Sequence record: MH517022.1
Length of the DNA: 64,000 nt
Source: Acinetobacter phage SH-Ab 15599
Strand: one strand, 5' to 3'
The notes beneath the pieces were generated by a model. That model had not been told where the DNA came from. It was given only the letters and a program-made list of their open reading frames with translations, and did no database searches. Below, piece by piece: positions 14,252 to 48,442 of the stretch. Within the stretch, counting starts at the first letter, position 1. The number at the start of each line of letters is the position of its first letter. Position numbers and translations under genes: made by a program.

Positions 14252-14644
14252 ATGAAGTTCTACGTTGGAACAACGAAAGTAGAACATGAAGAATTTGATT
14301 TTTCTCTTGCCACAGTGTTTAAGGAGAAAGATCGGGAAGGAATGTTACCATTATTTGAAGCTCTGATAGATGCTGAATATTGGACAGAAACAAGTCTGGT
14401 TGAGTTAACATCTCATATGGAATTGTACACTGGTATGACTCCATTTGATATCAAATATCTTAGTGGATTGTGCGAATATGTTGAGGAACATGATAACGGC
14501 GTGGAATATCTGTTCTTCAATATAATTGATATGCCAGTTCTAATGGTAACATTTGATAATTTTACGAGCCTGTTTATTGAATCTAAAAATGTAAACAGAT
14601 TTATAACCGCCCTTTCTGGGCAAAGAAGGAAGCGCAAACGCTGA
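14252..14644 (+). CDS. Hypothetical protein
   Basis: 130-aa ORF. Stop overlaps the next start (ATGA). Confidence 0.45.
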   Translation: MKFYVGTTKVEHEEFDFSLATVFKEKDREGMLPLFEALIDAEYWTETSLVELTSHMELYTGMTPFDIKYLSGLCEYVEEHDNGVEYLFFNIIDMPVLMVTFDNFTSLFIESKNVNRFITALSGQRRKRKR

Positions 14645-18840: not shown

Positions 18841-19293
18841 GTGGTTAAGATTACTAACAATGTTGTTATTGACAGTAATGGTTGTTGGATTTGGAACAAA
18901 TCCTTTTCTAGTAACGGATATGGTCAGTTGACTGTAGATAAGCGTTACTGGTTGGCTCACCGTTACTCTTACACGATGTCTAAGGGAGAGATTCCAGCCG
19001 ACAACGTCGTAAGACACAAGTGTCATAACAAGAAGTGTTGTAATCCAGAACACCTTGAAGTTGGTACTCAAGCTGAGAACTGGCAAGACTCTAAAGAAGT
19101 TCATTTGAACAATGCCAAGAACAGACGCAAGCAATGGTCTATCAATGGTAAGTCTTTTGATACTCTTATGGAGGCTCAACGTTCTTCAGGTGTACCAGCT
19201 AAGACAATAGCAAAATATACCGTAAGAGGCGTATTTGATTTAGAGCGTTACAGACAAAGTTGCGCTAGAATAAAACGCGAACCAAAGATTTGA
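18841..19293 (+). CDS. HNH homing endonuclease (HNH_3/AP2-associated type)
   Basis: 150 aa with a GTG start. GCWIWNKSFSSNGYGQLTV, WLAHRYSY and HKCHNKKCCNPEHLEVGTQAEN are the HNH_3 signature. Confidence 0.8.
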   Translation: MVKITNNVVIDSNGCWIWNKSFSSNGYGQLTVDKRYWLAHRYSYTMSKGEIPADNVVRHKCHNKKCCNPEHLEVGTQAENWQDSKEVHLNNAKNRRKQWSINGKSFDTLMEAQRSSGVPAKTIAKYTVRGVFDLERYRQSCARIKREPKI

Positions 19294-28165: not shown

Positions 28166-28674
28166 TAAGAGTTACCGCCTTGACTATTACGTTCAGCTTC
28201 AGCTTCATCAGCTAATCTGAGGAGTTCAGATGTATTTACTGCTACTGTCTTAGCGATGTTAATTGTTGTACCTTCTTCAGCCTCTTCAGGTGGCGTCTTA
28301 GGAACAACTTTAGCGTCTTTGTAAATGGTCTTCATGTTACTATGAAGTGAAACAAGTTCTTTCACAGAGTTCAAAGCATTTGAAGATGCAGAGTTGAAAG
28401 CCTCAATTGCTCGAGGGTGTTCAGTCTCTTTAGCAACTGTAGATGCTCTATGAGTGATCTCAAGGTTCATTGTAATCAATGCATGAATGGCACTACGAGC
28501 AAAAGACAAGTCTGGTTTAGCATCAGAGTCTTCAATATCAGGCGCATTGGATGGTTTGATTTCAAGCTCAAAATCTTCGCGCTGCGGTCTCTCATCTGGA
28601 GATACGTCTCCTAGATTTGTATCTGAGCCTGCGGGGATAATCCCCAACTCAGATAAAAGGTTATTCATGCTCAT
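28165..28674 (-). CDS. 16: Terminase small subunit gp16
   Basis: 169 aa, immediately upstream of gp17 with an overlapping ATGA junction. Confidence 0.6.
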   Translation of the reverse strand: MSMNNLLSELGIIPAGSDTNLGDVSPDERPQREDFELEIKPSNAPDIEDSDAKPDLSFARSAIHALITMNLEITHRASTVAKETEHPRAIEAFNSASSNALNSVKELVSLHSNMKTIYKDAKVVPKTPPEEAEEGTTINIAKTVAVNTSELLRLADEAEAERNSQGGNS

Positions 28675-30858: not shown

Positions 30859-31069
30859 TGTTCATTAACTCCCGTATCTGCTCTTGCTGTTCATTATACA
30901 GACGTTTTAATGTTAGGACATCAGATTCAAGACTTTCAATTCTTTGTTTCTGAGTCCTAACAATTTCTCTTGATTTTACAAACTGAAGGAAGCCTTCGGT
31001 ATCGTTATTTGATACCGAAGCCCCTTGTCTAATCCATTTATCGCTCATATTAGCCTTACGCCAACGCAA
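30845..31069 (-). CDS. Small coiled-coil protein
   Basis: 74 aa, with the C-terminal heptad-like stretch IESLESDVLTLKRLYNEQQEQIRELMNNV. Occupies the slot where T4 has wac. Confidence 0.35.
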   Translation of the reverse strand: MRWRKANMSDKWIRQGASVSNNDTEGFLQFVKSREIVRTQKQRIESLESDVLTLKRLYNEQQEQIRELMNNVQK

Positions 31070-34000
31070 TCAAACGCAATTCACTCAATTCAGGGGCTTG
31101 GTTCCCTTCAGACGCAAACAGTTCAATGCGAAGTTTTAATCCCAAGAATGTATCTTGAGTATTAATCTCATATTCAGCTTCATATGAATCGGAGTTAGAG
31201 TTTTTGAAGTTCTTAACAACAGAAACATCCTTCCATTCTTTGTTTGTCAAGTTCTCATCCCCAGAAGTCAAATCCTTGTATTTCAACTTCACACTAGAAC
31301 CATATGGAATGTTACCAACCAAGTAGATTCTAGCAGATGTTGAAGGGTTGTTGAACTTCATAGAACGGGTGATGACCTTAGCAATTACATCAGTCGCATT
31401 AGTGCTGATACGCGAACCAATTAATTCAAGTCCAGCTCCATCTAGATCAATCATTGGAGTAACCCATTCATTGTCAGATTTCATTGTAATTGAAAGTTTT
31501 GGTTTAAGGTCTTTAGTTGAAATTCCATCAAATGGCATATCAGCTAATGTATCAGGTAATAGACCTGTGAATGTTGCAGCTGTTCTGTTACCTTGTTGAT
31601 GAGTTAACAAGTCAAGAGATAAAGATGTACTATCAAGAACAAATGTTCCTAACCAAGGGCACACTTTATCAAACGGGTTGTTACAAGCTACCATGATAGC
31701 GCCACCGCCAATGGAACCGCTAACCAAAGCAGGGGTAGTTGCATCAATAGTGAACCAGTCTACATCTGCAGTTACAACGCGTTGTTCTTGGTTGATACGC
31801 GATGCATCAATTCCATTACCAGATACTGCTCCAGTAATAGAGACGTAATCGCCCACTTTCAGACCGTGACCAAGACACTCTACTTTTAACGAAGAGCTTG
31901 CTTCTGTAGTAGAGATTGAGTTGTATGGTAAAAGTCTTGCGCTTGGTGAAGAACCTTCTAAAACGGCGGTATAAGCTGTATCGGTCTTAAATTTACAACC
32001 CATGATCTTGAATTTCAAGTCTTCTAACTGATTAGGAGTCCAAGTTTGGCCGTTAGAAGATACAAAGAAAACGCCAGTATGAGGTTGTTTAGCAACAACA
32101 TAGTTGTTAGCAAGATCAATCTCTCCCATACGAGCTAAGAATACATTGTACTCTTGGGTATCTGCAAGCAATACAATAGCATATTCCTTATCTTTCTCAA
32201 GATAAACAGGATCAGAAAATTCAAATCTTGTTGCTACTGTACCGTTGTTTGAAACATTCACTTGGTCTGGGTTCTTAATAACTTCACCAAACATCAACAC
32301 TTCATTTGAAGGAGTACCATTGTATACATTACGGATTTGCAATGTCACAGGGATACTACGGGCTTTAGTTGAGAAGTAAATGTCAACTGCTTTAATGAAC
32401 CCACCTCCATCTTTAGAGATAGAGAATGTTTGAGCAACAGGGTCACGATTCCAACGCGCTGTAACTCTTGATGAAGATGAAGTCCATTTGGTTTGGATTG
32501 CTCTGAGGGTTTTAGTTACAGTTGTAGTCTTTTGACGAGTCTCTAACTCACCGCCAGATACAAAGGCCGCTTCGCCCATAGTGAAGTTGTTATTTGGATC
32601 ATCAGAGTTTGTCTGAGAATCTGTGAACTTCAGAATATTCGTACCATTCTTGAAGCGGAAGTCAGTTGTAGTAGGGATTCTAAATGTTCCTGTTGCTGAG
32701 CCGTTAGCATCAGTTACAATAGCTTCACCAAAGTCCTTACCAGTTTGGCGACACTGAGATGATACTGCAATACCTGAGAAGAATGGATACAAACGAGTCA
32801 ATGGTTTGAAACCTTTCAAATCGAATGAAATATCAATACCACGCATGTAAGGTAATACTTGGATTGATACTCTTGAATCAGTAACCTTAACACTTGTACT
32901 TTCTTGAATCTTAGTGTTTACAAATGTATCAGTTGTAGTCTGAATAGTCTCACCTAGACGTTGTGTCAAACGAGTGGTTTCAGATACGACTGAAGAGAGA
33001 AGTTCATCACCTGCTTTCAAACCATTAGTCAAATCATTTGTTTCATTCAAAACGATAGGTTTGTTGTATACAGTATCTTTCCAGAAATCCTGCATTGGAT
33101 TCAAAGTAACCGTACCGCCCCAAGTGAATACTGCAAATGGGTTGATGTTAGATGTAGTTGTAGCATAAACCTGAGAAGCAAACTCTACAAGATCATACGG
33201 TAATGTAACTGTTGAACCATGTTTAACGCCACCACTCAAATATGATAGATCAATACCATTTTGTACGATAGGAGCAGAAACAATTCCTTCTTCAGTATCA
33301 ATAGACGCAGCCCACTCTTGATCTAAAATATCAATCAAACGGAAGTCTTTGAAACGGTCAGCAGCAATACCGTTTTTGTAGCGGTTGTTACCTGTATCTG
33401 GATCCAGAATCTGAGTGCGTTCAGCCTTGGTCTCTACTTGACTCAATGTAGCATAATATTCAACATTTTTCAAGCGTTGATCGATCTTACCAATATCAGC
33501 CATTGTATAGCGTCTATTCTCGACAACACTAGCTTTCACAGACAGAATTGTATCTGTATAAGCAGGAATATTGAGTTGATATAGAGCCATAGAGTCAGCA
33601 GGTATTTTTGGAGCTACAGGAGTCTCAGATGACGTACCCTTAGCAACAGAATAATTTCCTGCAGCTGAAACGTACAAAATGTCAATACGTGGCAAGAACA
33701 TTGTTAAATCAATACGCACGTTATCATTTGGATTAACAATATCATAAGCAGTAGGCAAGTTCGTGAAACTACCGTTAGAAGTCTTCAACAGACGGAAATC
33801 AATACAGTCAGCAAGGCTGCGCAATACTCGGTCTGAAGACTCTTTAGACGTTGGAATATCAGTACGTGGAACATTATATGAATCTACGCAGAAGAACTCT
33901 CCTGAGTTAGAGTGTTCAAAGTATTCATAAGTCACAGTGATGTTAGCAGTAACAGTACCAGATGTTGAAATCAAAGAACCAGTTTCATACCAGTTAGGGC

Positions 34001-35867
34001 GTTGACCGTCAAAGAATGTAAACCCTGAAGTCATATCTAAACCACTATCTGTATTGATAACTGAAACAATACGATAGATGTCAGCTTTTGAAAGACTAAC
34101 AGAAGACGCATCATTCAATGAAAGATTTTCAGTCGTCTCTCTGAGCGTCTTTGTCTTGTATGTTGGGTTGGTTTTGATGATTGTAGCAATTACACGCAAA
34201 GCAACGCCAGCATATGAATTGCCGTAGTCAACATTCAAAACTTTACCTGTAGGTGAACCACCTAATGCTAAACCAGTTACAGGTAGAGTTCCAGAACCAT
34301 TTTGACAAACAAGATAGTCCAGAGAATTGATAGAATTAAAGATTTCAGAGCCAGTTAAACCAATTGAAGATTTACCCGTAGCATCTAAAACGATATCAAA
34401 AGAACGGGTAACATTGAATGTAACATCTAGGCCACCAGTTCCAGTTAATGAACTAACATTTGCATATGGCAGAGGGAATAACAAGCTGTCTACCGTACCA
34501 CCGAACACGCTAGAAACAACTAATGAAGCCTCGAATGTATCTAGAGTTGAAAAACTAGCAACAATACGTTTTACGTTGGAAAACGCTTGGTTAGCGTTCA
34601 TCTTGATATCCATTAGATATAATACAAGATTTTCTCCATCGCGTTTAGCAGCACGGACTTTACAAGTCCCGAGAATTGTATTTGCATCATCTACAAGGTT
34701 ATGAGTTCTGGTGAGATCCAGTTTTGGCAAACCTTTGATTACACTGGTTACAATATAAGAACCGTATTGAGATTGTACTACACCATTGTTGATGATTTTG
34801 GTATCTCTGGCCTTCTCTACAACAACATCTTTGTAGTTAGAAATTTCATGACGGTAGCCCTGAACATAAGAAACGCCACGTTTCAAACGCATAACCATCA
34901 AAGACTCATTACCACCTTCAACTGGAGTATACAATCCATCGACATGTGATTCATCTCGAATATGGTCTAAAATCTCAACAGGAGGGTGAGTGACGGTGTA
35001 GTTACCAGACTCTTCATATGTGCGTTGAGCCAAGATGTCATTAAAAGCAGCATATTGAGTAGTATCATTGACATTCAACACATCGCCTTCTTGAATTTCT
35101 ACAATTTCAATGAATGTATCATCTTTAGCAGAACGGTCAATTGCTTCAAGACTTAATGAGAGTTTAAGACGACATGCCCCTGCCCCCTTGTAGTTAGGTT
35201 CACCAGAAGCGTTAGAGAATAGCGATGCATCCATAGTCTCATCAATGATTTCTTCATGAATTCTGAAGCCAACCAATTTTGAAGGAGACGGTTCTGGGAT
35301 CAAGATAGATTGAGCTGGAGACAATACAAATGAACCGTTTACAAAATAAACACCTTCAATGATACCAGCATAGAAGCCTTTTGACTTTTCAGCAATAACA
35401 GCTGTAGTGATATCAACTTCAGTACCGTCAATCAATTGAGAAACAATTAACGATTCTTCAAGAGCATATTCTGTTTTAGTTTCGCCGTCTGTATTCAGAT
35501 ACTCAATAGCAAACCAACCTGTATTACCGCTGATATCCAAGTATTTTAAGATTTTAGCGCGTAAGCCACTGTTTGCTCCACGAAGATAAAAATCATTGCT
35601 CTGAGACAAGAAATTAGATTGGAAATCAGTTGGGAACAATACACGTAATGTATCTTGATCTTCACGAACTGATACTGAACCCTCACCTACAACAGATCCA
35701 GATTTGAAGAAGTGTGAACCAATACGATTAATTTGTTCTTCAATGATTGACTGCAACTGGTTCATTTCACGAACTTGCACAGAACGACCTGGGCGGAACA
35801 ATACCTTGTGGAATCCCTTACTTGGATCAAAGTCATCGTAGAAAGGTGATGCGTTTGTGTCAACCAT
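31056..35867 (-). CDS. Very large virion structural protein (1603 aa), baseplate/fibre-associated
   Basis: Single uninterrupted ORF at the head of the neck/terminase late operon. Beta-rich and S/T/N/G-rich composition. Confidence 0.5.
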   Translation of the reverse strand: MVDTNASPFYDDFDPSKGFHKVLFRPGRSVQVREMNQLQSIIEEQINRIGSHFFKSGSVVGEGSVSVREDQDTLRVLFPTDFQSNFLSQSNDFYLRGANSGLRAKILKYLDISGNTGWFAIEYLNTDGETKTEYALEESLIVSQLIDGTEVDITTAVIAEKSKGFYAGIIEGVYFVNGSFVLSPAQSILIPEPSPSKLVGFRIHEEIIDETMDASLFSNASGEPNYKGAGACRLKLSLSLEAIDRSAKDDTFIEIVEIQEGDVLNVNDTTQYAAFNDILAQRTYEESGNYTVTHPPVEILDHIRDESHVDGLYTPVEGGNESLMVMRLKRGVSYVQGYRHEISNYKDVVVEKARDTKIINNGVVQSQYGSYIVTSVIKGLPKLDLTRTHNLVDDANTILGTCKVRAAKRDGENLVLYLMDIKMNANQAFSNVKRIVASFSTLDTFEASLVVSSVFGGTVDSLLFPLPYANVSSLTGTGGLDVTFNVTRSFDIVLDATGKSSIGLTGSEIFNSINSLDYLVCQNGSGTLPVTGLALGGSPTGKVLNVDYGNSYAGVALRVIATIIKTNPTYKTKTLRETTENLSLNDASSVSLSKADIYRIVSVINTDSGLDMTSGFTFFDGQRPNWYETGSLISTSGTVTANITVTYEYFEHSNSGEFFCVDSYNVPRTDIPTSKESSDRVLRSLADCIDFRLLKTSNGSFTNLPTAYDIVNPNDNVRIDLTMFLPRIDILYVSAAGNYSVAKGTSSETPVAPKIPADSMALYQLNIPAYTDTILSVKASVVENRRYTMADIGKIDQRLKNVEYYATLSQVETKAERTQILDPDTGNNRYKNGIAADRFKDFRLIDILDQEWAASIDTEEGIVSAPIVQNGIDLSYLSGGVKHGSTVTLPYDLVEFASQVYATTTSNINPFAVFTWGGTVTLNPMQDFWKDTVYNKPIVLNETNDLTNGLKAGDELLSSVVSETTRLTQRLGETIQTTTDTFVNTKIQESTSVKVTDSRVSIQVLPYMRGIDISFDLKGFKPLTRLYPFFSGIAVSSQCRQTGKDFGEAIVTDANGSATGTFRIPTTTDFRFKNGTNILKFTDSQTNSDDPNNNFTMGEAAFVSGGELETRQKTTTVTKTLRAIQTKWTSSSSRVTARWNRDPVAQTFSISKDGGGFIKAVDIYFSTKARSIPVTLQIRNVYNGTPSNEVLMFGEVIKNPDQVNVSNNGTVATRFEFSDPVYLEKDKEYAIVLLADTQEYNVFLARMGEIDLANNYVVAKQPHTGVFFVSSNGQTWTPNQLEDLKFKIMGCKFKTDTAYTAVLEGSSPSARLLPYNSISTTEASSSLKVECLGHGLKVGDYVSITGAVSGNGIDASRINQEQRVVTADVDWFTIDATTPALVSGSIGGGAIMVACNNPFDKVCPWLGTFVLDSTSLSLDLLTHQQGNRTAATFTGLLPDTLADMPFDGISTKDLKPKLSITMKSDNEWVTPMIDLDGAGLELIGSRISTNATDVIAKVITRSMKFNNPSTSARIYLVGNIPYGSSVKLKYKDLTSGDENLTNKEWKDVSVVKNFKNSNSDSYEAEYEINTQDTFLGLKLRIELFASEGNQAPELSELRLIALA

Positions 35868-35958: not shown

Positions 35959-38766
35959 TTACCATCCACCCCGTATATAGGAGTTTTCATTGTAGTACTG
36001 AGATGATGTGATCAAGCTGCCATTCTTCTTGATAACAAGAGTTCCGGAACCAGATTTGATATTACCGTATGTTCCAGCCGCCGTATTAGAACCAGAACCT
36101 GTTGCAACAGAACCCGATAGACCTGCATCACCACCTTTACCACCGTTGAATACAGTAGTTACAGAAGTGCCTGGGTCAGTATAAGAATATGAACCGCCAT
36201 CTCCACCGATTGTTCTAGTTGCAACAACACCATTGTAATCGCCTGTACCAGCTGCACCTGTAGAAGCGCCACCGCCCCCGCCAATGTTCTTTCCATTAAC
36301 AGCTACACCGCCGCCGCCGCCGCCGCCTGATGCAATGATACAATCGGAGGTAGAGATGTTCAAGTTCAGAGTAAGACCAGAACCTACTTCAATACATGGC
36401 CCACCGTTTGCTCCTACTTGAGAAAGACCAGGAGATGCACCCTTACCACCTTTACCTACAACGCCGCCAGTACTGTTCCAGAAAATGTTCATTTCTGTAC
36501 CAGCTAACCAGTTAACATTTCTCAGAGCAGCGCCCAGAGTAGAAGACGCTGTGAACCAACACTCTCCAGTAATGTACAAGTTACAAATCCAAGCAACGTC
36601 TTGAGTGCCAAATTGGGCTTCAAACAACGACTTGAGATCAACATCTGTAAGGTTTGAACCAGAGAGATACATATTCATCACAGGTGTCAAAGAGGTATCT
36701 TTCACCAGTAATTGTTTGTTTGAATCTCCTACAACTTGAGATGTAGTTTGGTTGACCCATTCCATCAATAACAATTCATCTCCTTCAGTCTTCTTATCAG
36801 CAATGATTTCAATCTTTTGAGCAAGAATCATATTGCCTGTATATTGTTTAGCGACCATTGTACTGTTAGTGATATCAACATCTTGTCCTTCTACGATTTC
36901 ACCTGTTGTAGATACTGATTTAATTGTAGGTTTGAAATAGGTATTGATAAGCGTTCCAGACGGTACTCTTAGGATCAAATAAACTGTTTTACCTTCATCA
37001 GATTGAGTGATGATATCCGTCCCATTTGGATTAGTTGAATACCAAGTTTCAGCCTTCCAAGCAGTGTCAATAATGATGAGAGCAGTAGATGTAACAACAG
37101 CACCTAAACGTCTCACTTCAAGAGTGATTGTTTCTGTACCTTCATATGGTTTAGTTGGATCAGCCTCTAATGTAACAGGTACAATAATCAAGTTATTGTT
37201 AATGTTTCTTGGAGTACCAAATTCAACAATGTTACTGATATCCGAGTCACTTGAACTGGTAAATGTGAATTCAGTACCATTTGCTACATATTTTGTTTCA
37301 AGAACCAAATAAACAGTATCGCCTTCATTAGCTTGGGTAATGGTATTTGATCCATCTGCATAGCGAGAGACTCTTGATGCATACTCCGGAGGGCCAGATA
37401 CATCAATAACATCTATTTCTTTGAAAGTATTAGATGCTGACAAAGTGAAACGTAACTTCTCAGTTGCTTCAGGTAAAAAGTCTTGTACAATAGGAATATC
37501 TACAATACCGTTGCCACTTCTGATTTCTACATTCCCAGATAATGGGATACCAATATCGGATTGCGATACTTGAGTGATGTTATATGCCAATAAAGAACCG
37601 TCTGCATTTTGAGGGGCGTTAACAATAACGCGTAGCATTTGTCCTTCACTGACAGTTGTAGATTCAATAAACGCAGAACCCTGTAATATACCCATCTGTA
37701 AAGAATATGTCATTTCTTCTGATGAAGAGTATGATTCCATGATTGTCCAGTTGATCTTCCCTGTCCAGTTACCACCAGAATCATTTTTAGCAACAAGTCC
37801 AAATGATCCATTAGCCCGATTTGTTACTTCAACGCCTCCGCAGACAGCTGAGATTTTCTCTGGAGTAGTCAGAATTACAAATCTTTCTCTTGAGAGATCA
37901 ATGCCTGGAACGGATACATCAAATGGGGATGTAGGACTGAATGTAGTCACTGCGCTCCCAGCTGCTACAACCTTCGGATAAATCTTAGTTGTATAGATTT
38001 GAGTCCAGAACCCATAAGCGCCGTTGACCTTAGAACGGAAATACATCTCATTTTCTTCTGAGATGAACATTTGCGCTCCCATTGAGGCGTTATATGTTCC
38101 TGCAATTGTTTGACAAACGCCTTTACCATTCGCATTAGGTCTAGAGCCAGGAGTAGCTGGATTACAATAAACGATAGATGAGAATGAAATTGAGTTCAAG
38201 TCTACATTGACCCCAGCTGCATCATCTTTCACTTCAACGCTGTTAACATACCCGTATTTGCGTTGTACAACGGTACGCTCAAACAAATTGTAATTTGTTG
38301 ACGGCGATAAACGACCTTGAGTACTGAGACCAGTAATTTCAACAGATGCTGCATCATAAACTGTGCTGATAGCAGTCATGGTCAGAATGATACCTACTGA
38401 AGTGGTACCAATCTTTTGCGCCAATGATAATTCTTTAAATTTGAATAAAGATGGATCTTCATTCAGAACGCTAATGATATTCACACTGTTATCGATAGCC
38501 GCGCCCGTATTTCTACCTTGACCACTAACTGCTACGACAAGATTGAAACGCTTTCTGTTCATAGAGAAATCAATAATGTAGAATCCATTAATCAATTCCC
38601 CCTCGTCAATCAATACGTTGTATTCCCCGTCCTTTCTTGTAACAACAATAGGAGAGGGAGTTGTATCAATCGTCATGTTTTTGTCAAAAGACATATATCC
38701 CAACCCAGAAATATTCGGGGCTTGAATACCCTGAGGGAACTGGGTTGCTACATTATTATCAGACAT
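35959..38766 (-). CDS. Tail-fibre-like protein with a glycine-rich C-terminus, paralog 1
   Basis: 935 aa. Collinear with the 810-aa protein (CQTIAG..MYFRS.., DIGIPLSGN.EI.S.NG.VD.P.V.D). C-terminal poly-Gly blocks (GGGGGGG). Confidence 0.55.
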   Translation of the reverse strand: MSDNNVATQFPQGIQAPNISGLGYMSFDKNMTIDTTPSPIVVTRKDGEYNVLIDEGELINGFYIIDFSMNRKRFNLVVAVSGQGRNTGAAIDNSVNIISVLNEDPSLFKFKELSLAQKIGTTSVGIILTMTAISTVYDAASVEITGLSTQGRLSPSTNYNLFERTVVQRKYGYVNSVEVKDDAAGVNVDLNSISFSSIVYCNPATPGSRPNANGKGVCQTIAGTYNASMGAQMFISEENEMYFRSKVNGAYGFWTQIYTTKIYPKVVAAGSAVTTFSPTSPFDVSVPGIDLSRERFVILTTPEKISAVCGGVEVTNRANGSFGLVAKNDSGGNWTGKINWTIMESYSSSEEMTYSLQMGILQGSAFIESTTVSEGQMLRVIVNAPQNADGSLLAYNITQVSQSDIGIPLSGNVEIRSGNGIVDIPIVQDFLPEATEKLRFTLSASNTFKEIDVIDVSGPPEYASRVSRYADGSNTITQANEGDTVYLVLETKYVANGTEFTFTSSSDSDISNIVEFGTPRNINNNLIIVPVTLEADPTKPYEGTETITLEVRRLGAVVTSTALIIIDTAWKAETWYSTNPNGTDIITQSDEGKTVYLILRVPSGTLINTYFKPTIKSVSTTGEIVEGQDVDITNSTMVAKQYTGNMILAQKIEIIADKKTEGDELLLMEWVNQTTSQVVGDSNKQLLVKDTSLTPVMNMYLSGSNLTDVDLKSLFEAQFGTQDVAWICNLYITGECWFTASSTLGAALRNVNWLAGTEMNIFWNSTGGVVGKGGKGASPGLSQVGANGGPCIEVGSGLTLNLNISTSDCIIASGGGGGGGVAVNGKNIGGGGGASTGAAGTGDYNGVVATRTIGGDGGSYSYTDPGTSVTTVFNGGKGGDAGLSGSVATGSGSNTAAGTYGNIKSGSGTLVIKKNGSLITSSQYYNENSYIRGGW

Positions 38767-39208: not shown

Positions 39209-41641
39209 TTATCTCCCAGAAATCCAACCAGAATAGTTTCTGATATCTACATTATGTTCATTTGTTTCAATAATTTTACCCTTCAAACCGCCCTTGCCTG
39301 GAGCTAAAGCAACATACCAAGTACCAGTATAGTTGAATATTCCGTCACTGCCGTCGGCTCCAATGTCGCCGCCATTGCCTGGTTTCATAGGGCGCATAGT
39401 TGGGTCATACTGTTGAGGAGCCGTTGTAGCGTTCCCTACTGGTCCAACGTCTGTTTGAACTTCTTGTCCAGACGGGTATCGTCTATAAACTTTATCATTT
39501 TTGGAATAGGCTGAAAAGTCGTAAGCATCAGTCCAGATCGGCCAAGACTGTAGATCGGGAGAAATTAGAGTTTGAGGCGTGTACATCATTTTAGGCGTAA
39601 TTCCATAAGGAGCGCCGCCGCTTCCAGCTACAATAGGGTGCCAAGCGTTTCGGTTACTCATTTCAGTACTTGCGCCCACACCAGAAGCGCCACCTCCGCC
39701 GCCGCCTCCAGCTACAACTCCATAGTTCTCAAAGATCAAGAAATTGTTATTTGATCCAGATATACAACTCCCGCCATCCTCTCCATTAAAGTTTGTTGTA
39801 TTCAAAGGGGATATTGCATATCCACCTTGACCACCTCTGCCCCAGACAGAACCAAAGTTTACATACTTGATCTTTGACCCATAAGGGAAATCTCCAACAG
39901 TGATAGCTGAGATGGCAGTAGACGATGCTACAACAACCGTTCCATAGTTTTGAGTAAACTTGATGTTCACAGGGTTGGTTACATCTACGCCCTTTGACTT
40001 AGCAAAATTGTAAAGATTCAAATCAACCATATCTGTAGAAATGTTAATAACAATTTCATTTACAACTGGTTGGTTAAACAACAACGGATAATAAAAGCGC
40101 CCGTTATTATCCAGTGAAACATCTATCTCATTGGGAACGGAGTTGATAAGAGAGGATGCAAAGTCGGAACCTTCAAAGGAAAGTCTATATGTTTGCTGAG
40201 GGTCATAAACAATACCCACGACCTGAACATATAATACAAATCCATCTTTCAGATCAGTGACAGGCATATTACCTTGGATATCAGAAGAGAAATATACATT
40301 AAATTCAGGTGCAATTGAAGTATCTTGAATTATCATAGAAGCTGACACGCCAGAACCATTTTGTAATGTTAGGGTCATTGTTTCTTGACCTTCTGGTGTC
40401 ATATCTTTGATTACTGGAACATCTATTACACCAGAGGAGTTCATGATAGTGAAATTACCAGATAATGGGATACCAATATCGGTCTCTGTAACGCCAGTAA
40501 TCAAAAATGGAATCAGCGTACCGTTAGGGACATTCAAAGTCGAAAGAACGAATCTTACAGTTTGCCCCTCCTCAACCGAAGTAACTGGAGTTGTATCTGA
40601 CCCATCTAAGCGTCCAGCATACATATTATATCTTGGCGCGTTAGAAGGAGCGTAAGCCTCTGATATGTTATAATTGATTACGCCCGCCCAAGCTGTCTTC
40701 AAAACAATATCAAAGAATCCATAACCTCTATCAGCAATCTGAGGAGTTGGAGATAGATCAATGTTATCATATTGGGTAGACATATTGATAACATAAGCTT
40801 CGTTGGTAAGATCAATGTTGCCTACGCTTATTCTGATCAATTGGGTTCCAGTACCAGCTGCTACAAATTGAATACCACTTTTGACCAGTTTAGGATATTT
40901 GTCATCACTTAATGCTTCCTCCCAACTTGTACCCGTTGATCTGAAATACATCTTTCTGTTTTCTGAGACAAATATCTGATTGACCTTATCGCCAAAGGCA
41001 AAGGTCATACAAACGCCAACCCCGTTGAAATCTGGTCTAGAATTAACAGAAGCTGGTTGACATAAATTGATGGAGTTTTCTTTGATATTATTCAAATCAA
41101 CATTTGTAATGTCATCAACTCTTAGAATATTCTTTGGATTAATGATAGAGGCGTCAATATTATTAGTGTAATTGTTATAATTGAGATTTGGAGAGACTTC
41201 TATCTGTGAACCAATATGAACAATTGAGCAACTTAATGGGCCGTGAGTTCCAGCGCCGTTGGTTCCAATTTTCAATAACAAACCTACATCTGTTGATGCA
41301 TTAGCTCTTAAATCAACATCTTTGAGATAAATTGGGCCTGGGTTTGAGATGCTCAAGATGTTGAGTGTGTTACTACCTGAATCAGCTGATTGTCTTCCAT
41401 TAGCTGAAGCCAGGATCATGAGTTTTTCATTATCTGGGTTAGTGAATGTAATGAAATACAGACCACTTATGGTTTGTTTTGAGTCTACAACAAATAAATA
41501 TTCATCGCCATTAACAGGAATATTAGCAACATCCTTTCTTGAGCTGCCAAAATTTCTAGAGAATTTCAATCCATCGATACCAATGAGGCTTTTTGCTCCA
41601 ACTCCTCTAGGGTAGATGGATGGTAATTTCACGTCAGCCAT
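39209..41641 (-). CDS. Tail-fibre-like protein with a glycine-rich C-terminus, paralog 2
   Basis: 810 aa. Collinear with the 935-aa protein. C-terminal GGGGGGGASG and GGQGG blocks. Confidence 0.55.
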   Translation of the reverse strand: MADVKLPSIYPRGVGAKSLIGIDGLKFSRNFGSSRKDVANIPVNGDEYLFVVDSKQTISGLYFITFTNPDNEKLMILASANGRQSADSGSNTLNILSISNPGPIYLKDVDLRANASTDVGLLLKIGTNGAGTHGPLSCSIVHIGSQIEVSPNLNYNNYTNNIDASIINPKNILRVDDITNVDLNNIKENSINLCQPASVNSRPDFNGVGVCMTFAFGDKVNQIFVSENRKMYFRSTGTSWEEALSDDKYPKLVKSGIQFVAAGTGTQLIRISVGNIDLTNEAYVINMSTQYDNIDLSPTPQIADRGYGFFDIVLKTAWAGVINYNISEAYAPSNAPRYNMYAGRLDGSDTTPVTSVEEGQTVRFVLSTLNVPNGTLIPFLITGVTETDIGIPLSGNFTIMNSSGVIDVPVIKDMTPEGQETMTLTLQNGSGVSASMIIQDTSIAPEFNVYFSSDIQGNMPVTDLKDGFVLYVQVVGIVYDPQQTYRLSFEGSDFASSLINSVPNEIDVSLDNNGRFYYPLLFNQPVVNEIVINISTDMVDLNLYNFAKSKGVDVTNPVNIKFTQNYGTVVVASSTAISAITVGDFPYGSKIKYVNFGSVWGRGGQGGYAISPLNTTNFNGEDGGSCISGSNNNFLIFENYGVVAGGGGGGGASGVGASTEMSNRNAWHPIVAGSGGAPYGITPKMMYTPQTLISPDLQSWPIWTDAYDFSAYSKNDKVYRRYPSGQEVQTDVGPVGNATTAPQQYDPTMRPMKPGNGGDIGADGSDGIFNYTGTWYVALAPGKGGLKGKIIETNEHNVDIRNYSGWISGR

Positions 41642-41727: not shown

Positions 41728-42114
41728 ATGACTCCTAAGAACCATCTTACATTGGAATGTCACTACGGCACCAATCTGACAACTACGGTGACAGGTATTG
41801 ATCCAGAGACGTCATTAACGTACCGTTTTGATCAGTTCACAGATATTCAAATGCACATTTCAGTATCTGCAATTGACCCTCCATACAAAATCGTACCCCT
41901 AGAATTTGATCAGGGCGATCCTAGACAATTGGTTGTGGAGGTATTAGAGACGCAATTGATGAACTCAGATGTAGTGTCATCAATGGTATTAGTGAATCCA
42001 CCGCCTTACTTTGTATTTTCAATAATTGGAAAGAAAGACGGCGTTAACAAGGTGTTGTTTGATGGTATAATCAATTATACCAGATTTGGAGCTATGAAGT
42101 TCTCACGACTTTGA
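41728..42114 (+). CDS. Hypothetical protein on the opposite strand inside the structural block
   Basis: 128 aa, RBS GAGAGGAAATCAAC-ATG, no competing minus ORF. 3' end converges with gp25. Confidence 0.45.
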   Translation: MTPKNHLTLECHYGTNLTTTVTGIDPETSLTYRFDQFTDIQMHISVSAIDPPYKIVPLEFDQGDPRQLVVEVLETQLMNSDVVSSMVLVNPPPYFVFSIIGKKDGVNKVLFDGIINYTRFGAMKFSRL

Positions 42115-42463
42115 TGAAATCAGTAGAGGCATCAAGTTCATTCTCATACAGATAAATGATACGTATGGTCAGCTGATGCCTCTCAATACTCTCAAACAAT
42201 ACATCTTTCACTGTAATTCTAGGTTCATCAATCCTAGCAATTTCTTCAATCCGACTCTTCACTTGATTTCTTATAAGAGCATTATCATTCTGGAACAGAG
42301 TGTTGTAAACTTCCCCGCCATGAATATCAGTTCTCATAATAAAATCTGTGATGCTAGACAATACAAGTGTCTTAAATGATTGAAAAACTGCTCGCTTTCC
42401 AGTGAGTAAGAACAAATCCTGAGTCTCTGGATGGGATAAAAATCTAGGGTCAAAATCGGCCAT
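42092..42463 (-). CDS. 25: Baseplate wedge protein gp25 (GPW/TssE family)
   Basis: 123 aa. Size and sequence pattern fit GPW/gp25. Directly followed by the spike genes. Confidence 0.55.
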   Translation of the reverse strand: MADFDPRFLSHPETQDLFLLTGKRAVFQSFKTLVLSSITDFIMRTDIHGGEVYNTLFQNDNALIRNQVKSRIEEIARIDEPRITVKDVLFESIERHQLTIRIIYLYENELDASTDFIKVVRTS

Positions 42464-42473
42464 TTTAGATACC

Positions 42474-43934
42474 TCAAGGACTAGGCGTAGGTGTTACGGG
42501 CGCACCCAAAGGGAATATTTTGTTTCCAACGCCCAAATACACTGAGTCATTATGAATGAACATCCCAGAGTATGTTGTTGGCATAGAATTCAAAGTTGGA
42601 ACAATCATACCAGCTGCAACATTGATTGGTGAGTTGAAAGATACCTCTCCAGCTGTACCTCCACTACCACCTTCCCCTCCACTTGGAGGTTGAACGTTGA
42701 TTGCTCCAGAAAGACCTGCTAATGCCGCTCCAGCTGCACTGCCTGGGGCTAATGCGTTTGCGACCTTAGCAAGTTCTGATGAAGCTGCGTTCAACTGAGC
42801 AATAGGGGCTTTACAAGTCAACTCTTGAGTATCAATACTCTTGGCATCAACAGGTTGAGCAAATGCTGCCGGAGAGTTGACTTGAAGGTCTTTAGATTCA
42901 ATAGTCATATTGTCGTTAGACATGACCTTTTGTCCAGTTTTCTCATAAGACTGACCTTCAACAATTTCAGCTTGGTCTTCCTTTTGAAGCTTTTGGACTG
43001 ACCCATTAGCCAACAAAAATAGGTCTTTATGCGCTTTGATTACAATATCTCCATCTGCGTGCATCTCAATATATGAGCCACTCATATGAAATATCATAAT
43101 GCGTTCAACCCCAGGGGTATCGTCAATCTCAATACAGTGACCAGACGGAGATTGATACACCTTATTATGAGGATATTGCGGGGCTGCTCTACTTCTTGGT
43201 TCAGTTACACCTGAAGAACGAGAATTTGGGGTCGGTGAATCAGTAGAAGTACCAGACTCAGGGACAGCTTCATCCAAATCCTCAACTTCCTTTCCCGTGA
43301 GGACACTCAAAGCGCGTTTGTACATTGTAGTACGTTCTTCAAAATGGAGACTTGCTGCGTTGATTCGCTTAACAACAACAGCCCAGTTACCAGCATCGGC
43401 TTGTCTATTCAGAGATTTGTTACCCCAGAACCAACAAGCGGAAAGAGCCGCGTTTTGTTTCTGTTGTAAAGACTCTGGATTGTTTACAGCCCCAGAACTC
43501 GGTTCACTGCGTTGGAAATCGGCATAGTTCCCTCTGCCCGTCAATTGGATGATACCTTGTCCTCGATATCTCCAACCGTCTCCAGACGCTTCATTGCCAT
43601 TACCAATCTTGTTAGCATAGACGTAGTTTGCAATCTTTTGAGGGTTGCGAGCATATGCATTAGCCTGAGCTGAGGTTTTGAACTTGCTAGGGAATACTTC
43701 CATCAAACGTTCAGCTGAATAATTGAGGTTCTCAACCAGTCTGCTAAAGTTACTTGATTCAACAGAAACATTTCCAAAGAACATTGCAATACGATACAAC
43801 TTTACAATCTGATACTTTTGCATTGAAGGCCAGAGTGCAGCATGCCAACCAGCTGCATTACTCGCACTCAAACCAAATATCTTCTGAACATGTTCTACAG
43901 TGAGAACAATATCCTTATTTTCTAATTCAGCCAT
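42474..43934 (-). CDS. Spike-associated protein: N-terminal GH19-like glycoside hydrolase domain plus C-terminal Gly/Ala-rich beta-helix-like tail
   Basis: 486 aa. YANKIGNGNEASGDGWRYRGQGIIQLTGRGNY resembles the GH19 chitinase/lysozyme catalytic motif. C-terminus has GGEGGSGG and a V/G-rich tail. Confidence 0.55.
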   Translation of the reverse strand: MAELENKDIVLTVEHVQKIFGLSASNAAGWHAALWPSMQKYQIVKLYRIAMFFGNVSVESSNFSRLVENLNYSAERLMEVFPSKFKTSAQANAYARNPQKIANYVYANKIGNGNEASGDGWRYRGQGIIQLTGRGNYADFQRSEPSSGAVNNPESLQQKQNAALSACWFWGNKSLNRQADAGNWAVVVKRINAASLHFEERTTMYKRALSVLTGKEVEDLDEAVPESGTSTDSPTPNSRSSGVTEPRSRAAPQYPHNKVYQSPSGHCIEIDDTPGVERIMIFHMSGSYIEMHADGDIVIKAHKDLFLLANGSVQKLQKEDQAEIVEGQSYEKTGQKVMSNDNMTIESKDLQVNSPAAFAQPVDAKSIDTQELTCKAPIAQLNAASSELAKVANALAPGSAAGAALAGLSGAINVQPPSGGEGGSGGTAGEVSFNSPINVAAGMIVPTLNSMPTTYSGMFIHNDSVYLGVGNKIFPLGAPVTPTPSP

Positions 43935-43935
43935 G

Positions 43936-44883
43936 TTATTTCGCCTTTAAATTAGCAACATCTGGAAAGACTGCTGCAATGAGACTTGATCTAGCAAAGG
44001 TTGTTCTTGTAACTTCCCCGCCATTCTGTTTGTTCTTAGCCGATTGGTTACCACCCACAGCATGTATACGCCCATCTTTTTCATATTCACAGAAAAATAC
44101 GTGACCAGAAGATGCGCCCCTGTTACCCGCAATTACACAAATACTGCCTGGCGGAATAGGCTTCTGATTAAGAGTTGATTTACCGTATCTTGTATAAGAA
44201 CGGGCTGCAGCTGAGCCAGATCCTTTGATACCAACCTTTTGTAAACACCAACCCACAAAGGATGCACACCATGGAGTCTCTCCTCCCCATTTAGATGAAC
44301 CACCGCCTTTGGCGTGATACTCTCTAATTTGAGCAGGGTTATCTCTTTCATCAACACCCAATTGAGAAATAGCTACAGCCAACCAAGGATAGTTTTTCAA
44401 CTCCTCTGGACTAATCTGCGTATCATTTGGATTGTTAGCGCCGTCAATGTCACCAGAAATGGCATTTGCGTCTTTCTGAGCATATACATCTGATGAAGTT
44501 ACAATACCACGGGCCAAGGGGTTGACGTCATGGTCAGTACCATTTGGAAAGGGAACTGAAGGGTCAATGAGATTGTTACGCTGTCCGGCAATAGTGAATT
44601 GAACTTCCCATTCTTGAAAGTCATTTGATGACTTAGGTCTCAATCTGACCAAAGAACCTTCTAGAAGTCCTAGAGGGGCAGTTCCTAAACCACTTACAAA
44701 TGGATTTGTAGCTGGTACTGCTATAGTACACCAAGGTAATTTTTCTTTCGGGACCTCTGCTGGGTTCAAAGAATGAATACCAAAAATGCGAACTCTCACG
44801 CGTCCACACTCTTTTGGATCCATAAGGTCTTCAACAATCCCTATATGATCTCCACAATACAATGGTAATTCTTTTCTTGACAT
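43936..44883 (-). CDS. 5: gp5-like baseplate hub/spike N-terminal OB-fold domain fused to a CHAP (NlpC/P60-like) peptidase domain
   Basis: N-terminal GIVEDLMDP..GRVRVRIFGIH (gp5/gpV OB-fold). C-terminal PWCASFVGWCL...GHVFFCEYE (CHAP Cys/His). The ORF may instead start at TTG 44904. Confidence 0.6.
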   Translation of the reverse strand: MSRKELPLYCGDHIGIVEDLMDPKECGRVRVRIFGIHSLNPAEVPKEKLPWCTIAVPATNPFVSGLGTAPLGLLEGSLVRLRPKSSNDFQEWEVQFTIAGQRNNLIDPSVPFPNGTDHDVNPLARGIVTSSDVYAQKDANAISGDIDGANNPNDTQISPEELKNYPWLAVAISQLGVDERDNPAQIREYHAKGGGSSKWGGETPWCASFVGWCLQKVGIKGSGSAAARSYTRYGKSTLNQKPIPPGSICVIAGNRGASSGHVFFCEYEKDGRIHAVGGNQSAKNKQNGGEVTRTTFARSSLIAAVFPDVANLKAK

Positions 44884-44930
44884 AATAAATGCCCGATAAC
44901 ACAATATATTGAATATTTAGCTTCAGGCAT

Positions 44931-44952
44931 AAAGAAAGGGGCTTTCGCCCCT
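44931..44952 (-). terminator. Terminator (minus strand)
   Basis: GGGGCGAAAGCCCC then TTTCTTTAT on the minus strand. Confidence 0.5.
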
Positions 44953-47155: not shown

Positions 47156-47642
47156 CTTTCATATCCTTCAAACGGAAGCTATCAATATTGGTTGTGCCAA
47201 TTAGCACATAGCGTTTACCAGATAGAGAGTTGGCATACACTTTGCGTTCATCTTCAATAGTTGTTCTAATACCCCATTGAGATAAATCAATTTTGAGGTC
47301 TTCTTCATTGAGTTTATCAACAATAAACTCAGGAATCATTACATCCATAAGGCTCTCCGCGTGAGCTATTTTCACTTTCAAAATATCTAGCAGACGTTTG
47401 AAATCAGCCTTACACTCAGCCATATTATGACCAACACCTTCTATATGAAGACGACCCAAATAACTGATATCGCCAGAAGTGCTATCTCCTAGATCAACAG
47501 CAAACTGTTTGAAAAAGTTATGTTCTGGATGATTTACATCATGGTATCGAGTGTAACCGTATTCAACCTTTACATTTGATTCGCCAGATGCGCAGCGGTC
47601 TTTCCAAAATTGTACTGAAGGATCAATTTCTTTGTTATCCAT
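47130..47642 (-). CDS. Hypothetical protein
   Basis: 170-aa ORF. Its start abuts the stop of the upstream P-loop protein gene (47642). Confidence 0.4.
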   Translation of the reverse strand: MDNKEIDPSVQFWKDRCASGESNVKVEYGYTRYHDVNHPEHNFFKQFAVDLGDSTSGDISYLGRLHIEGVGHNMAECKADFKRLLDILKVKIAHAESLMDVMIPEFIVDKLNEEDLKIDLSQWGIRTTIEDERKVYANSLSGKRYVLIGTTNIDSFRLKDMKVEPIDPTK

Positions 47643-48442
47643 TAGAATAAATCCATGAGATTGGTCGTAGATTGGTATTGACGTTTCAGAGCTTCAGATG
47701 GAACATACATCTCCCCATCTCTCATCTTCTGGGAATACAATTCCATGTCTGGAACAAAGAAATGTTCTTTAGTGAAATCAACCCCTTCCAAGGTATTTTC
47801 TCTAAGAAGTCTTACAATGCGTGGCACCAAGTAGTCAGTATCGCCCCAAAGAACATAGGAGCCATAATAAACTGCATGGTTAGTGCCAGTATTAATTGAT
47901 TTGACCTTTCCAATTACATTTTTCAATTGCATTGGTTCAAATACGCCACGCTTAGCCCGTCTTTCCATGATACGGTCAAGATGAGTTTGACAATCCCATT
48001 GGAATGCACACCATACAGAGGCATGACCCATTTCTCTCAGTTCTCTGTCTAGACGATGCATAGCAGAGAAGACTGAAGACCAAAGTACGCCTTCCATGAG
48101 TATAGATTTGGTTCCAATCAGTTGTTTAACCAATGGAGCAATTACATAGAAGTCTCTCACACCGTCAAGACCGCCGCACTCATTGTCATATGAGCCTAAC
48201 ACATAGAAGGTTTCATATTCATCTACAGGGACTTTGACTGTACCGTATTTTTCACTAGGCATATCAAATACATGTCTAGCAATAGGCTTATGAAACTGAC
48301 TAACAACCTTACGGATACAATATGATTTACCTGAACCATTTGAACCACGTAAGTTTACCAGAATGTTGCCAGTATGCTGGAAAGCAGGGAGTTGTGAAAC
48401 TCCCTCCATCCCTGAAATTGTTTTAGACAATTTGAAAATCAA
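47642..48442 (-). CDS. P-loop NTPase/kinase-like protein
   Basis: 266 aa with Walker A GSNGSGKS. Confidence 0.45.
   Translation of the reverse strand: MIFKLSKTISGMEGVSQLPAFQHTGNILVNLRGSNGSGKSYCIRKVVSQFHKPIARHVFDMPSEKYGTVKVPVDEYETFYVLGSYDNECGGLDGVRDFYVIAPLVKQLIGTKSILMEGVLWSSVFSAMHRLDRELREMGHASVWCAFQWDCQTHLDRIMERRAKRGVFEPMQLKNVIGKVKSINTGTNHAVYYGSYVLWGDTDYLVPRIVRLLRENTLEGVDFTKEHFFVPDMELYSQKMRDGEMYVPSEALKRQYQSTTNLMDLF

Follow-up and report, generated by a model that had tools for sequence, protein, structure and literature searches.

A candidate gp5-type cell-puncturing spike divided between two genes, with CHAP and GH19 lytic domains, in Acinetobacter phage SH-Ab 15599

In phage T4, the OB domain of gp5 seats the protein on the gp27 hub, and cleavage at Ser351 turns the product of one gene into the non-covalent gp5*-gp5C complex. 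Can a spike of this type be encoded from the outset by two genes, each with a lytic domain of its own? The question is raised by two adjacent open reading frames (ORFs), ORF1 and ORF2, in a 64,000-nt stretch of Acinetobacter phage SH-Ab 15599 (record MH517022.1; the whole stretch is hereafter the window, less than half of the 143,204-bp genome). An earlier reading of this DNA, the first-pass annotation, had described them as a split spike gene carrying two lytic domains instead of a T4 lysozyme, and both do lie where it had placed them, on the minus strand. We consider it likely that ORF1 and ORF2 encode the central cell-puncturing spike of this Ackermannviridae-related phage, as two coupled late cistrons that replace gene 5. 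SH-Ab 15599 is an A. baumannii myovirus that comparative work has placed beside the Ackermannviridae (PMC8878043; PMC10057805).

The features of the upstream gene, ORF1, are as follows.
43936..44883, minus strand: ORF1 (SHAb15599_00156), 315 amino acids (aa) plus stop; candidate N-terminal subunit of the spike, with OB and CHAP/TIGR02594 domains
44410..44847, minus strand: gp5-type OB domain, ORF1 residues ~13-158 (Pfam Gp5_OB, T4 gp5 alignment, PHROG 430)
44038..44388, minus strand: CHAP/TIGR02594 domain (NlpC/P60 superfamily) of ORF1 (Pfam CHAP, NCBIfam TIGR02594)
44266-44268, 44101-44103 and 44047-44049, minus strand: predicted catalytic residues Cys206, His261 and Asn279 of ORF1 (alignment)

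The mechanical ORF runs from 44904 to 43936 (322 aa from a TTG start), and the ATG at 44883 is the start in the GenBank product and in all homologues, giving 315 aa. ORF1 holds the segments GIVEDLMDP...GRVRVRIFGIH, PWCASFVGWC and GHVFFCEYE, from which an OB-fold fused to a CHAP-type peptidase had been proposed at first pass, and all three relevant profiles score above their cut-offs: Pfam Gp5_OB (PF06714) with 38.1 bits against 25, Pfam CHAP (PF05257) with 35.1 against 26 and, marginally, NCBIfam TIGR02594 with 71.6 against 70.55. The OB domain that marks a gp5-type spike is thus present; residues 20-177 of ORF1 align with residues 11-176 of T4 gp5 (E ~1e-12), and PHROG 430 (baseplate hub subunit and tail lysozyme) matches the same domain (6.6e-27). 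In the peptidase domain, C206, H261, N279 and Q280 are invariant in 16 ORF1 homologues with identity down to 44%. The CHAP domain of the phage 812 cleaver has a Cys-His-Glu triad whose third residue is spaced as Asn279 is in ORF1, 18 residues after the histidine (PMC13433997). The AlphaFold model of ORF1 is of moderate confidence (predicted local distance difference test score, pLDDT, of 61), and its resemblance to T4 gp5 and CHAP endolysins in Foldseek was weak (E 4e-4 to 7e-2 for the latter). A domain of this family can be an amidase or an endopeptidase, and the 'endopeptidase' of the first-pass annotation is better read as a predicted peptidase or amidase.

The second gene, ORF2, has a longer and more composite product.
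42474..43934, minus strand: ORF2 (100% identical to SHAb15599_00155), 486 aa plus stop; candidate C-terminal subunit of the spike, with a GH19 domain, a linker, a gp5C-type needle region and a C-terminal region
43296..43916, minus strand: GH19 muramidase-type domain, ORF2 residues 7-213 (PDB matches, Foldseek, active-site alignment)
43758-43760 and 43731-43733, minus strand: predicted catalytic pair Glu59 and Glu68 of ORF2 (alignment to PaGH19Lys)
43185..43295, minus strand: Ser/Thr/Pro/Glu-rich linker, ORF2 residues 214-250 (T4 gp5 alignment, composition, pLDDT <35)
42870..43184, minus strand: gp5C-type region, ORF2 residues 251-355 (T4 gp5, 9F4A and PHROG 430 alignments)
42477..42869, minus strand: C-terminal region, ORF2 residues 356-486 (Ala-rich predicted helices, a Gly-rich linker and a ~50-residue beta unit)

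ORF2 contains GDGWRYRGQGIIQLTGRGNY, in which the first-pass annotation had seen a GH19-like catalytic motif. It had also anticipated Pfam matches to the gp5 OB domain, to CHAP PF05257 and to Glyco_hydro_19 (PF00182), of which the first two were obtained and the third was not, PF00182 scoring 13.3 bits on ORF2 against a threshold of 25.5. This Pfam model was built mainly on chitinases; P0162 and P0166, both in this family, pass its cut-off (29-32 and 26 bits), as does cyanophage gp5 (35 bits). Solved GH19 endolysins match ORF2 residues 11-212 with E values of 1.8e-41 (PWe1, 9MS6), 1.1e-37 (PaGH19Lys, 9EOI), 3.7e-35 (KTN6 gp46, 8P8E) and 4.4e-25 (SPN1S, 4OK7), at 33-40% identity and with the fold and the full active-site set in common. 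The AlphaFold model of residues 1-215 (pLDDT ~90) superimposes on 9EOI and 9MS6 with template modelling (TM) scores of 0.88-0.90, within a range of 0.78-0.90 over the GH19 endolysin targets, all normalised by target. In the alignment with PaGH19Lys, E59 and E68 fall on the catalytic E51 and E60, and Y106, Q130, T132, N192 and R201 on Y103, Q127, T129, N188 and R197; the whole set of seven is invariant in 15 ORF2 homologues, down to 31% identity. PaGH19Lys is a muramidase by experiment, with E51 and E60 as its catalytic residues (PMC12329726). Because sequence, fold and active-site residues agree, ORF2 can be assigned to GH19 despite the sub-threshold Pfam score, and the GH19 domain claimed for this gene was therefore upheld. 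The endolysins, however, are soluble proteins of ~200 aa or are fused to peptidoglycan-binding domains, and they lyse from within, whereas in ORF2 the GH19 domain is the N-terminus of a predicted needle protein.

This needle assignment comes from the part of ORF2 that follows. The linker is the counterpart of the T4 gp5 linker after the S351/A352 maturation site, and T4 gp5 residues 354-455 align with ORF2 residues 221-325 (E 1e-8), as do residues 357-459 of 9F4A, the central spike protein of the KP1 variant vB_Kpn_Lilla1, with ORF2 (E 9e-11). The gp5C-type region, residues 251-355, corresponds to T4 gp5 residues ~375-455, is matched by positions 302-430 of PHROG 430 (2.7e-28) and carries the motif YPxN...SxSGHxxExDDTPGxER...H..G, whose residues are invariant in 15 homologues; it would include the first needle beta-strands and ends at a conserved QVNxP. 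By these alignments, the segment right after the equivalent of the T4 maturation site is the predicted needle base, and the Gly/Ala/Val-rich tail noted at first pass is the distal part of a gp5C-type protein. The tail itself had been seen correctly, but the needle homology ahead of it, at residues 221-325, had been overlooked, and it is because of this homology that we read ORF2 as part of a spike and not as an endolysin.

Beyond the needle base, the C-terminal region may form the distal needle end. The AlphaFold2 model has low-confidence helices (383-409) and strands (457-476) here; the length of the region varies among relatives, and P0006 has three copies of it. Searching for homologues of the C-terminal half of ORF2 yielded just 5 remote proteins, which left the alignment no deeper. 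A membrane-inserting or glycine-zipper segment in the Ala/Gly-rich end was considered and rejected, the maximum 19-residue Kyte-Doolittle value being 1.34 and the hydrophobicity not conserved. Five metagenomic GH19 plus gp5C-type spikes (P0162, P0166, P0168, P0169 and P0170) reach a total of 1291-2647 aa through very long C-terminal extensions; those of P0162, P0166, P0169 and P0170 hold no Pfam domain above cut-off, and P0166 has one weak sub-threshold match to DUF7863. Such proteins may be cargo-carrying spikes.

How the two halves fit together is best seen against single-chain gp5 proteins. T4 gp5 (1K28, 1PDL, 5IV5) shares with the ORF1-ORF2 pair the OB domain, the linker and start of the needle and the placing of a hydrolase between OB domain and needle, and in its final state it consists of two non-covalently held chains, as the predicted spike would. 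It differs in that its hydrolase is a GH24 lysozyme, whereas here there are two unrelated enzymes, CHAP and GH19; in that its chains arise by cleavage at Ser351 and not from two genes; and in that here gp25 lies downstream and Pfam Gp5_C repeats are undetected. Moreover, the break in SH-Ab 15599 precedes the second enzyme, so that the needle keeps an enzyme, unlike in T4. Neither ORF1 nor ORF2 contains a T4-lysozyme-like domain, and the first-pass annotation's own counter-scenario, a frameshifted gene with such a domain in the middle, does not describe this locus.

A closer comparison is offered by the ViI-like phages. In the 537-aa gp5 of CBA120, described in 2011, CHAP/TIGR02594 replaces the lysozyme, with homology to the N- and C-terminal parts of T4 gp5 on either side, and proteomics of ViI virions detected the orthologue of this single-chain gp5 (PMC3184105). 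The layout of OB, CHAP/TIGR02594 and gp5C recurs in gp096 (536 aa) of Klebsiella phage Menlow, with gp25 immediately downstream; residues 10-290 of gp096 are collinear with ORF1 residues 15-314 (33% identity, E 5e-36) and its residues 313-535 with ORF2 residues 232-428 (28% identity, E 4e-17). Because of this collinearity, the GH19 module and the gene break can be placed in a gap of ~22 residues. The gp5 of CBA120 and Menlow is one polypeptide and has no GH19 domain, whereas in SH-Ab 15599 a GH19 module of ~215 aa together with a stop and a start occupies the ~22-residue linker between CHAP and needle.

An OB-CHAP gene stands directly before a GH19-needle gene also in nACB2, phiW-14, RSP15 and two metagenomic contigs. 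At the nucleotide level, megablast found no match to the locus in the phage collection. The architecture and order are the same in Acinetobacter phage nACB2 (gp131/gp130, 83%/68% amino-acid identity to ORF1/ORF2), in Delftia phage phiW-14 (an unannotated ORF and gp083, 44%/33% identity) and in Ralstonia phage RSP15 (ORF208/ORF207, 39%/38% identity), the last of which differs from SH-Ab 15599 in that gp25 is not directly downstream. The genes of this module are annotated in the relatives as 'hypothetical protein', 'tail associated lysozyme' or 'endolysin'. In phiW-14, the 328-aa OB-CHAP ORF (NC_013697, ~70152-71138) is unannotated, the locus tags skip gp082, and its stop overlaps the ATG of gp083. 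SH-Ab 15599 is reported to carry diaminopropane-modified thymine, made by a biosynthetic pathway common to phiW-14 (PMC13458397), and the two phages therefore have both hypermodification genes and the split spike module in common.

GH19 also occurs at the gp5 lysozyme position in single-chain proteins, namely the gp5 of Synechococcus phage BUCT-ZZ01 (939 aa) and the metagenomic P0194 and P0203. These cyanophage forms match Pfam Gp5_OB, Glyco_hydro_19 and Gp5_C/DUF2345 and differ from the SH-Ab 15599 module in being one polypeptide and in lacking CHAP. In a crude neighbour-joining tree of the GH19 domains, without support values, most split-spike sequences form one grade apart from stand-alone endolysins and fused cyanophage forms; P0194 and P0203 are placed with stand-alone GH19 proteins, BUCT-ZZ01 stands alone on a long branch close to the root, and none of the three joins the split-spike clade, which suggests that GH19 was recruited separately in cyanophage gp5 and in the split-spike clade. 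BUCT-ZZ01 gp5 and P0194 each show a weak, sub-threshold Peptidase_M15_3 match near the C-terminus, a similarity that hints at another double-enzyme spike in cyanophages. A further protein, P0146, combines OB with a VgrG3-like lysozyme domain.

The junctions between the two cistrons compare as follows.
43932..43938, minus strand: SH-Ab 15599 junction; ORF1 TAA at 43938-43936, one base C, ORF2 ATG at 43934-43932
nACB2: TAATG overlap
phiW-14: TGATG overlap, after the intact, unannotated 328-aa OB-CHAP ORF
RSP15: ATGA overlap
Metagenomic contig L004: TGA-GGA-TAA-CAA-ATG, with two in-frame stops between the cistrons
Metagenomic contig L005: TAATG overlap

In SH-Ab 15599 the junction reads AAA TAA c ATG and sets ORF2 in the +1 frame relative to ORF1; read upstream, the ORF2 frame meets a stop four codons before the ATG, and a Shine-Dalgarno-like AAGG lies ~10 nt upstream of that ATG, within ORF1. 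Across the clade the junction takes the forms TAAcATG, TAATG, TGATG, ATGA and TGAggaTAAcaaATG, and no slippery motif or recoding signal is common to the relatives compared. Every one of the 16 OB-CHAP clusters found has a length of 314-330 aa, and in each of ~28 GH19 plus needle clusters from a profile search of 1.84 billion representatives the GH19 domain starts at residue 17 or earlier. No OB-CHAP-GH19-needle fusion was present among the matches from 5.8 billion and 1.84 billion proteins. A single polypeptide with OB domain, lytic domain and needle, as in T4, is thus not what this clade encodes: throughout, there are two cistrons separated by a stop and a start, and the arrangement is typical of ordinary translational coupling.

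From the domain identities, collinearity and operon layout, and from the fact that both the split and the catalytic residues are conserved, we infer the virion location, a 3+3 stoichiometry, the enzymatic activities and the order of events in the following model. Coupled translation from a late transcript would yield equal amounts of ORF1 and ORF2, and three chains of each would assemble into one spike, with the ORF1 OB domains as the collar on the hub and the C-terminal halves of ORF2 as the trimeric needle, a two-chain design analogous to the non-covalent gp5*-gp5C complex of T4. Three CHAP and three GH19 domains would be displayed around the spike, the GH19 domains on the flexible linker. 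Sheath contraction would drive the needle through the outer membrane, and the two enzymes would then cut peptidoglycan locally for the tube, GH19 at the MurNAc-GlcNAc (N-acetylmuramic acid-N-acetylglucosamine) bond and CHAP at a stem-peptide or amide bond. In evolutionary terms, and relative to a single-chain gp5 of the ViI-like type, the clade would carry an endolysin-type GH19 module, with a start codon of its own, in the CHAP-needle linker.

Some findings weigh against this spike model. ORF2 gives no match to Pfam Gp5_C or Gp5_trimer_C, its homology to the T4 gp5 needle is demonstrable for the base only (about the first 100 residues, the sequence beyond ~325 being unalignable), and its AlphaFold2 monomer is unreliable past residue 215, with pLDDT <50 over most of 219-447 and <60 throughout the C-terminal half. 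No gp27 hub homologue was recognised in the window, and the literature searched held no virion proteomics or structures for the SH-Ab 15599, nACB2, phiW-14 or RSP15 proteins. In Agrobacterium phage Atu_ph04, a 291-aa OB-CHAP protein is followed by a 98-aa ORF and neck genes and has no needle gene beside it, so it seems that OB-CHAP can work where no ORF2 adjoins it. This case, like the extreme length of some ORF2 relatives (1291-2647 aa, with very long C-terminal extensions), would fit ORF1 and ORF2 forming no joint complex, ORF1 being a hub plug and ORF2 an independent tail-associated lysin or needle. Such independence is improbable, the two genes being strictly adjacent, with start/stop coupling, in each of the six contexts examined, and the same halves being covalently united in single-chain homologues; moreover, T4 gp5 354-455, the region homologous to ORF2, presumably sits beside the OB domains (PDB 1K28). 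The opposite idea, that the two ORFs are one gene, interrupted by a sequencing or assembly frameshift or read in vivo by frameshifting or readthrough as a single OB-CHAP-GH19-needle chain, draws on the single base between the ORFs, the +1 frame of ORF2 and the single-chain gp5 of T4 and ViI-like phages. It is scarcely credible, given the ORF2-frame stop four codons before the ATG, five independent relatives split likewise with varied frames and spacers (one with two in-frame stops), the absence of a slippery motif in common and the lack of a fused protein among the matches from either protein set. Because frames and spacers differ and no fused form was found, a sequencing artefact is excluded and conserved recoding is argued against; the split extends over at least 16 ORF1 and ~28 ORF2 clusters with differing junction frames, which also disposes of the frameshifted single gene that the first-pass annotation had named as its own refutation.

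Could ORF2 instead be the phage endolysin, alone or besides a role in the spike, released through a holin and with its C-terminal half serving as an oligomerisation or wall-binding module? Its GH19 domain is closest to bona fide endolysins, phiW-14 gp083 and RSP15 ORF207 are annotated 'endolysin' (a further point against the spike), a comparison of ~50 window ORFs with PHROGs brought up no other lysin, and the lytic cassette was left unannotated and unresolved in the nACB2 paper (PMC10057805). All the same, this is very unlikely. Residues 221-325 of ORF2 share homology with gp5C of T4 gp5 and with its counterpart in the 9F4A spike, the same region lies covalently within gp5 in Menlow and CBA120, and the ORF2 gene is always coupled to an OB-CHAP gene, with gp25 next in most relatives, RSP15 excepted. 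RSP15 has a separate cassette, in which a stand-alone GH19 protein (ORF081) is accompanied by a lipoprotein and an Rz-like spanin, and nACB2 gp163 is a separate endolysin candidate; because these two relatives have such candidates, ORF2 is probably not the lysis enzyme. There is also the possibility that one of the two lytic domains is catalytically dead and serves as a structural or binding module in a spike with a single working enzyme. The weld protein in the baseplate core of phage 812 provides a precedent in its inactive CHAP-fold 'clip' domain (PMC13433997), and the ORF1 model reaches a pLDDT of only 61; a dead domain is nonetheless decidedly improbable, with Cys206, His261 and Asn279 invariant down to 44% identity and the whole GH19 active-site set down to 31%.

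The lysis genes of the relatives are of interest in themselves. In RSP15, ORF081-083 encode a 203-aa stand-alone GH19 protein, a 60-aa lipoprotein with a lipobox and the Rz-like spanin, and ORF081 is 47% identical to the phage's own spike GH19 and 53.5% identical to the GH19 of metagenomic spikes. T4 offers a parallel, its gp5 lysozyme being a paralogue of its endolysin. The nACB2 gp163 protein (record positions 126476-127081), annotated 'peptidase containing protein', combines PG_binding_1 with Peptidase_M15_4, and its catalytic domain is 60-67% identical to annotated endolysins; by this similarity it is probably the endolysin reported missing in the nACB2 paper (PMC10057805). The window holds no homologue of gp163, which says little either way, as the window covers less than half of the genome. 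The only lysis gene of the nACB2 paper is gp129, a 'lysozyme family protein' (PMC10057805). It sits at the gp25 position, directly downstream of the spike genes, and its synteny with the window gp25 indicates that it is probably not a lysozyme.

If ORF1 and ORF2 do form the spike, the split may itself be functional, a possible but doubtful extension of the model in which two genes replace the proteolytic maturation of T4 and each separable half has one enzyme. Once the outer membrane had been punctured, the ORF2 trimer would come off in the periplasm as a free, trivalent unit that cuts glycan, a needle with three tethered GH19 muramidases, while the CHAP domain would remain with the OB collar at the end of the tube and enlarge the hole, giving a two-stage, two-location breach of the wall. 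Were this detachable needle real, the extensions of 1.3-2.6 thousand residues in some relatives would make those proteins cargo-carrying spikes comparable to evolved VgrG.

The surroundings of the two genes are those of a probable late structural operon.
44937..44952, minus strand: terminator-like hairpin, AGGGGC-GAAA-GCCCCT followed by TTCTTT, which closes the upstream gene just before the spike operon
44914..44920, minus strand: late-promoter-like CTAAATA (T4-type), 36 nt upstream of the ORF1 ATG, a consensus-level match only
42092..42463, minus strand: gp25-like baseplate wedge subunit, 123 aa, third cistron (PHROG 261, PHROG 43, Afp9, Menlow)
Upstream of 44883, 41641, 38766, 35867, 30050 and 58620, minus strand: xTAAATA motif (CTAAATA, CATAAATA or GTAAATA)

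The gp25 gene begins 10 nt past the ORF2 stop. Its product matches PHROG 261 (baseplate wedge subunit, 3.7e-13), PHROG 43 (2.6e-8), Afp9 (6RAO_H, 1.6e-7) and the Menlow baseplate wedge subunit (32% identity, E 7e-19), with Pfam GPW_gp25 below threshold (19.6 bits against 27.2). At first pass its place directly downstream had been singled out as a departure from T4; the gene is there, unlike in T4, but the order is no peculiarity, adjacency of gp5 and gp25 being usual in Ackermannviridae, phiW-14 and the metagenomic relatives. No xTAAATA element precedes ORF2 or gp25, and within the window the element recurs 25-48 nt ahead of the opening cistrons of five other structural units; the exact TATAAATA occurs once in the window. 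The motifs are consistent with T4-type late promoters, which would be read by a gp55-like late sigma factor whose gene lies at 1176-1784.

Downstream on the same strand lie genes for two fibre-like proteins, a 1603-aa virion protein, gp13-, gp14- and gp15-like proteins and the terminase, and a second tail and baseplate block at 52-58.6 kb encodes tube-like, gp48-like and gp53-like proteins. Two further proteins of this second block, of 431 and 663 aa, had no sequence match in the PDB, and no PAAR-type tip protein was recognisable in the window. A convergent 128-aa ORF (41728-42114, plus strand) overlaps the end of gp25 with its 3' end by 23 nt; an opposite-strand ORF of ~120 aa occupies this position in nACB2, in Menlow and in contig L004 too, and the 128-aa product has no family match and no detectable similarity to the Menlow ORF there. 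The fibre-like proteins of 935 and 810 aa (35959-38766 and 39209-41641, minus strand) have related N-termini and Gly-rich C-terminal parts with up to ~9 consecutive glycines; their sole match is a weak one to PHROG 2056 (tail fibre family), and a 140-aa ORF lies between them. The 1603-aa protein (31056-35867, minus strand), encoded between the fibre-like and neck genes, matches PHROGs 358 and 877, both of unknown function, and is conserved in nACB2 (gp124) and probably in RSP15 (ORF044).

Elsewhere in the window, a 266-aa P-loop protein (47642-48442, minus strand) weakly matches PHROG 800 (terminase small subunit); the syntenic terS is at 28165-28674, and phiW-14 and contig L004 have a PhoH-like ATPase roughly near the position of the 266-aa protein. 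An SPFH/Band 7 protein (14644-15444, plus strand; Pfam 122 bits, PHROG 200 'lipoprotein') is encoded ~800 bp downstream of rIIA/rIIB, with two small ORFs between, and its nACB2 counterpart is annotated 'protease'. An HNH homing-endonuclease-like ORF (18841-19293, plus strand) is surrounded by small ORFs mostly without family match.

The combination of two enzymes on one spike had been put forward at first pass as an unusual device. Split spike genes with CHAP and GH19 are indeed present, but gp5 proteins bearing CHAP have been known since 2011, and the two genes are a conserved variant of a well-known device and not a new kind of machine. Two hydrolytic activities are also found in Staphylococcus phage 812, on a CHAP 'cleaver' of the hub and a central spike hydrolase that are separate polypeptides (PMC13433997). 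The likeness, two hydrolytic activities on proteins of the baseplate core or tail tip, is one of functional analogy only, in that proteins and hosts are unrelated, the CHAP domain of phage 812 is on a gp27-like hub and its spike enzyme is proposed to act on teichoic acid. Another two-enzyme tail tip of Gram-positive phages is phi29 gp13. Novelty is therefore tempered, because CHAP-bearing gp5, gp5-gp25 adjacency and two-enzyme tips in Gram-positive phages are known and the module was already present in several deposited genomes, under wrong annotations or none. According to a review of 2017, a virion endopeptidase, or a pair of different virion lysins, had been demonstrated in very few phages of Gram-negative bacteria (PMC5380687). 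The literature searched contained no description of a two-gene CHAP plus GH19 spike, and within it the conserved two-cistron version seems to be undescribed.

Altogether, our analyses present the gp5 spike as a modular scaffold in which the enzyme cassette has been swapped (GH24, CHAP, GH19), doubled and split, while the OB collar and the needle base are conserved. Several annotations can be corrected in this light: 'hypothetical protein' in SH-Ab 15599, 'endolysin' in phiW-14 and RSP15, and the OB-CHAP ORF left unannotated in phiW-14. The two predicted muralytic domains, coming from an A. baumannii phage, are possible enzybiotics. The predicted double-enzyme spikes make up a well-populated clade that merits experiments, and they provide natural tests of two questions: does it matter that collar and needle are covalently linked, and do two bond specificities help a phage to cross the walls of hosts such as Acinetobacter, Delftia and Ralstonia?

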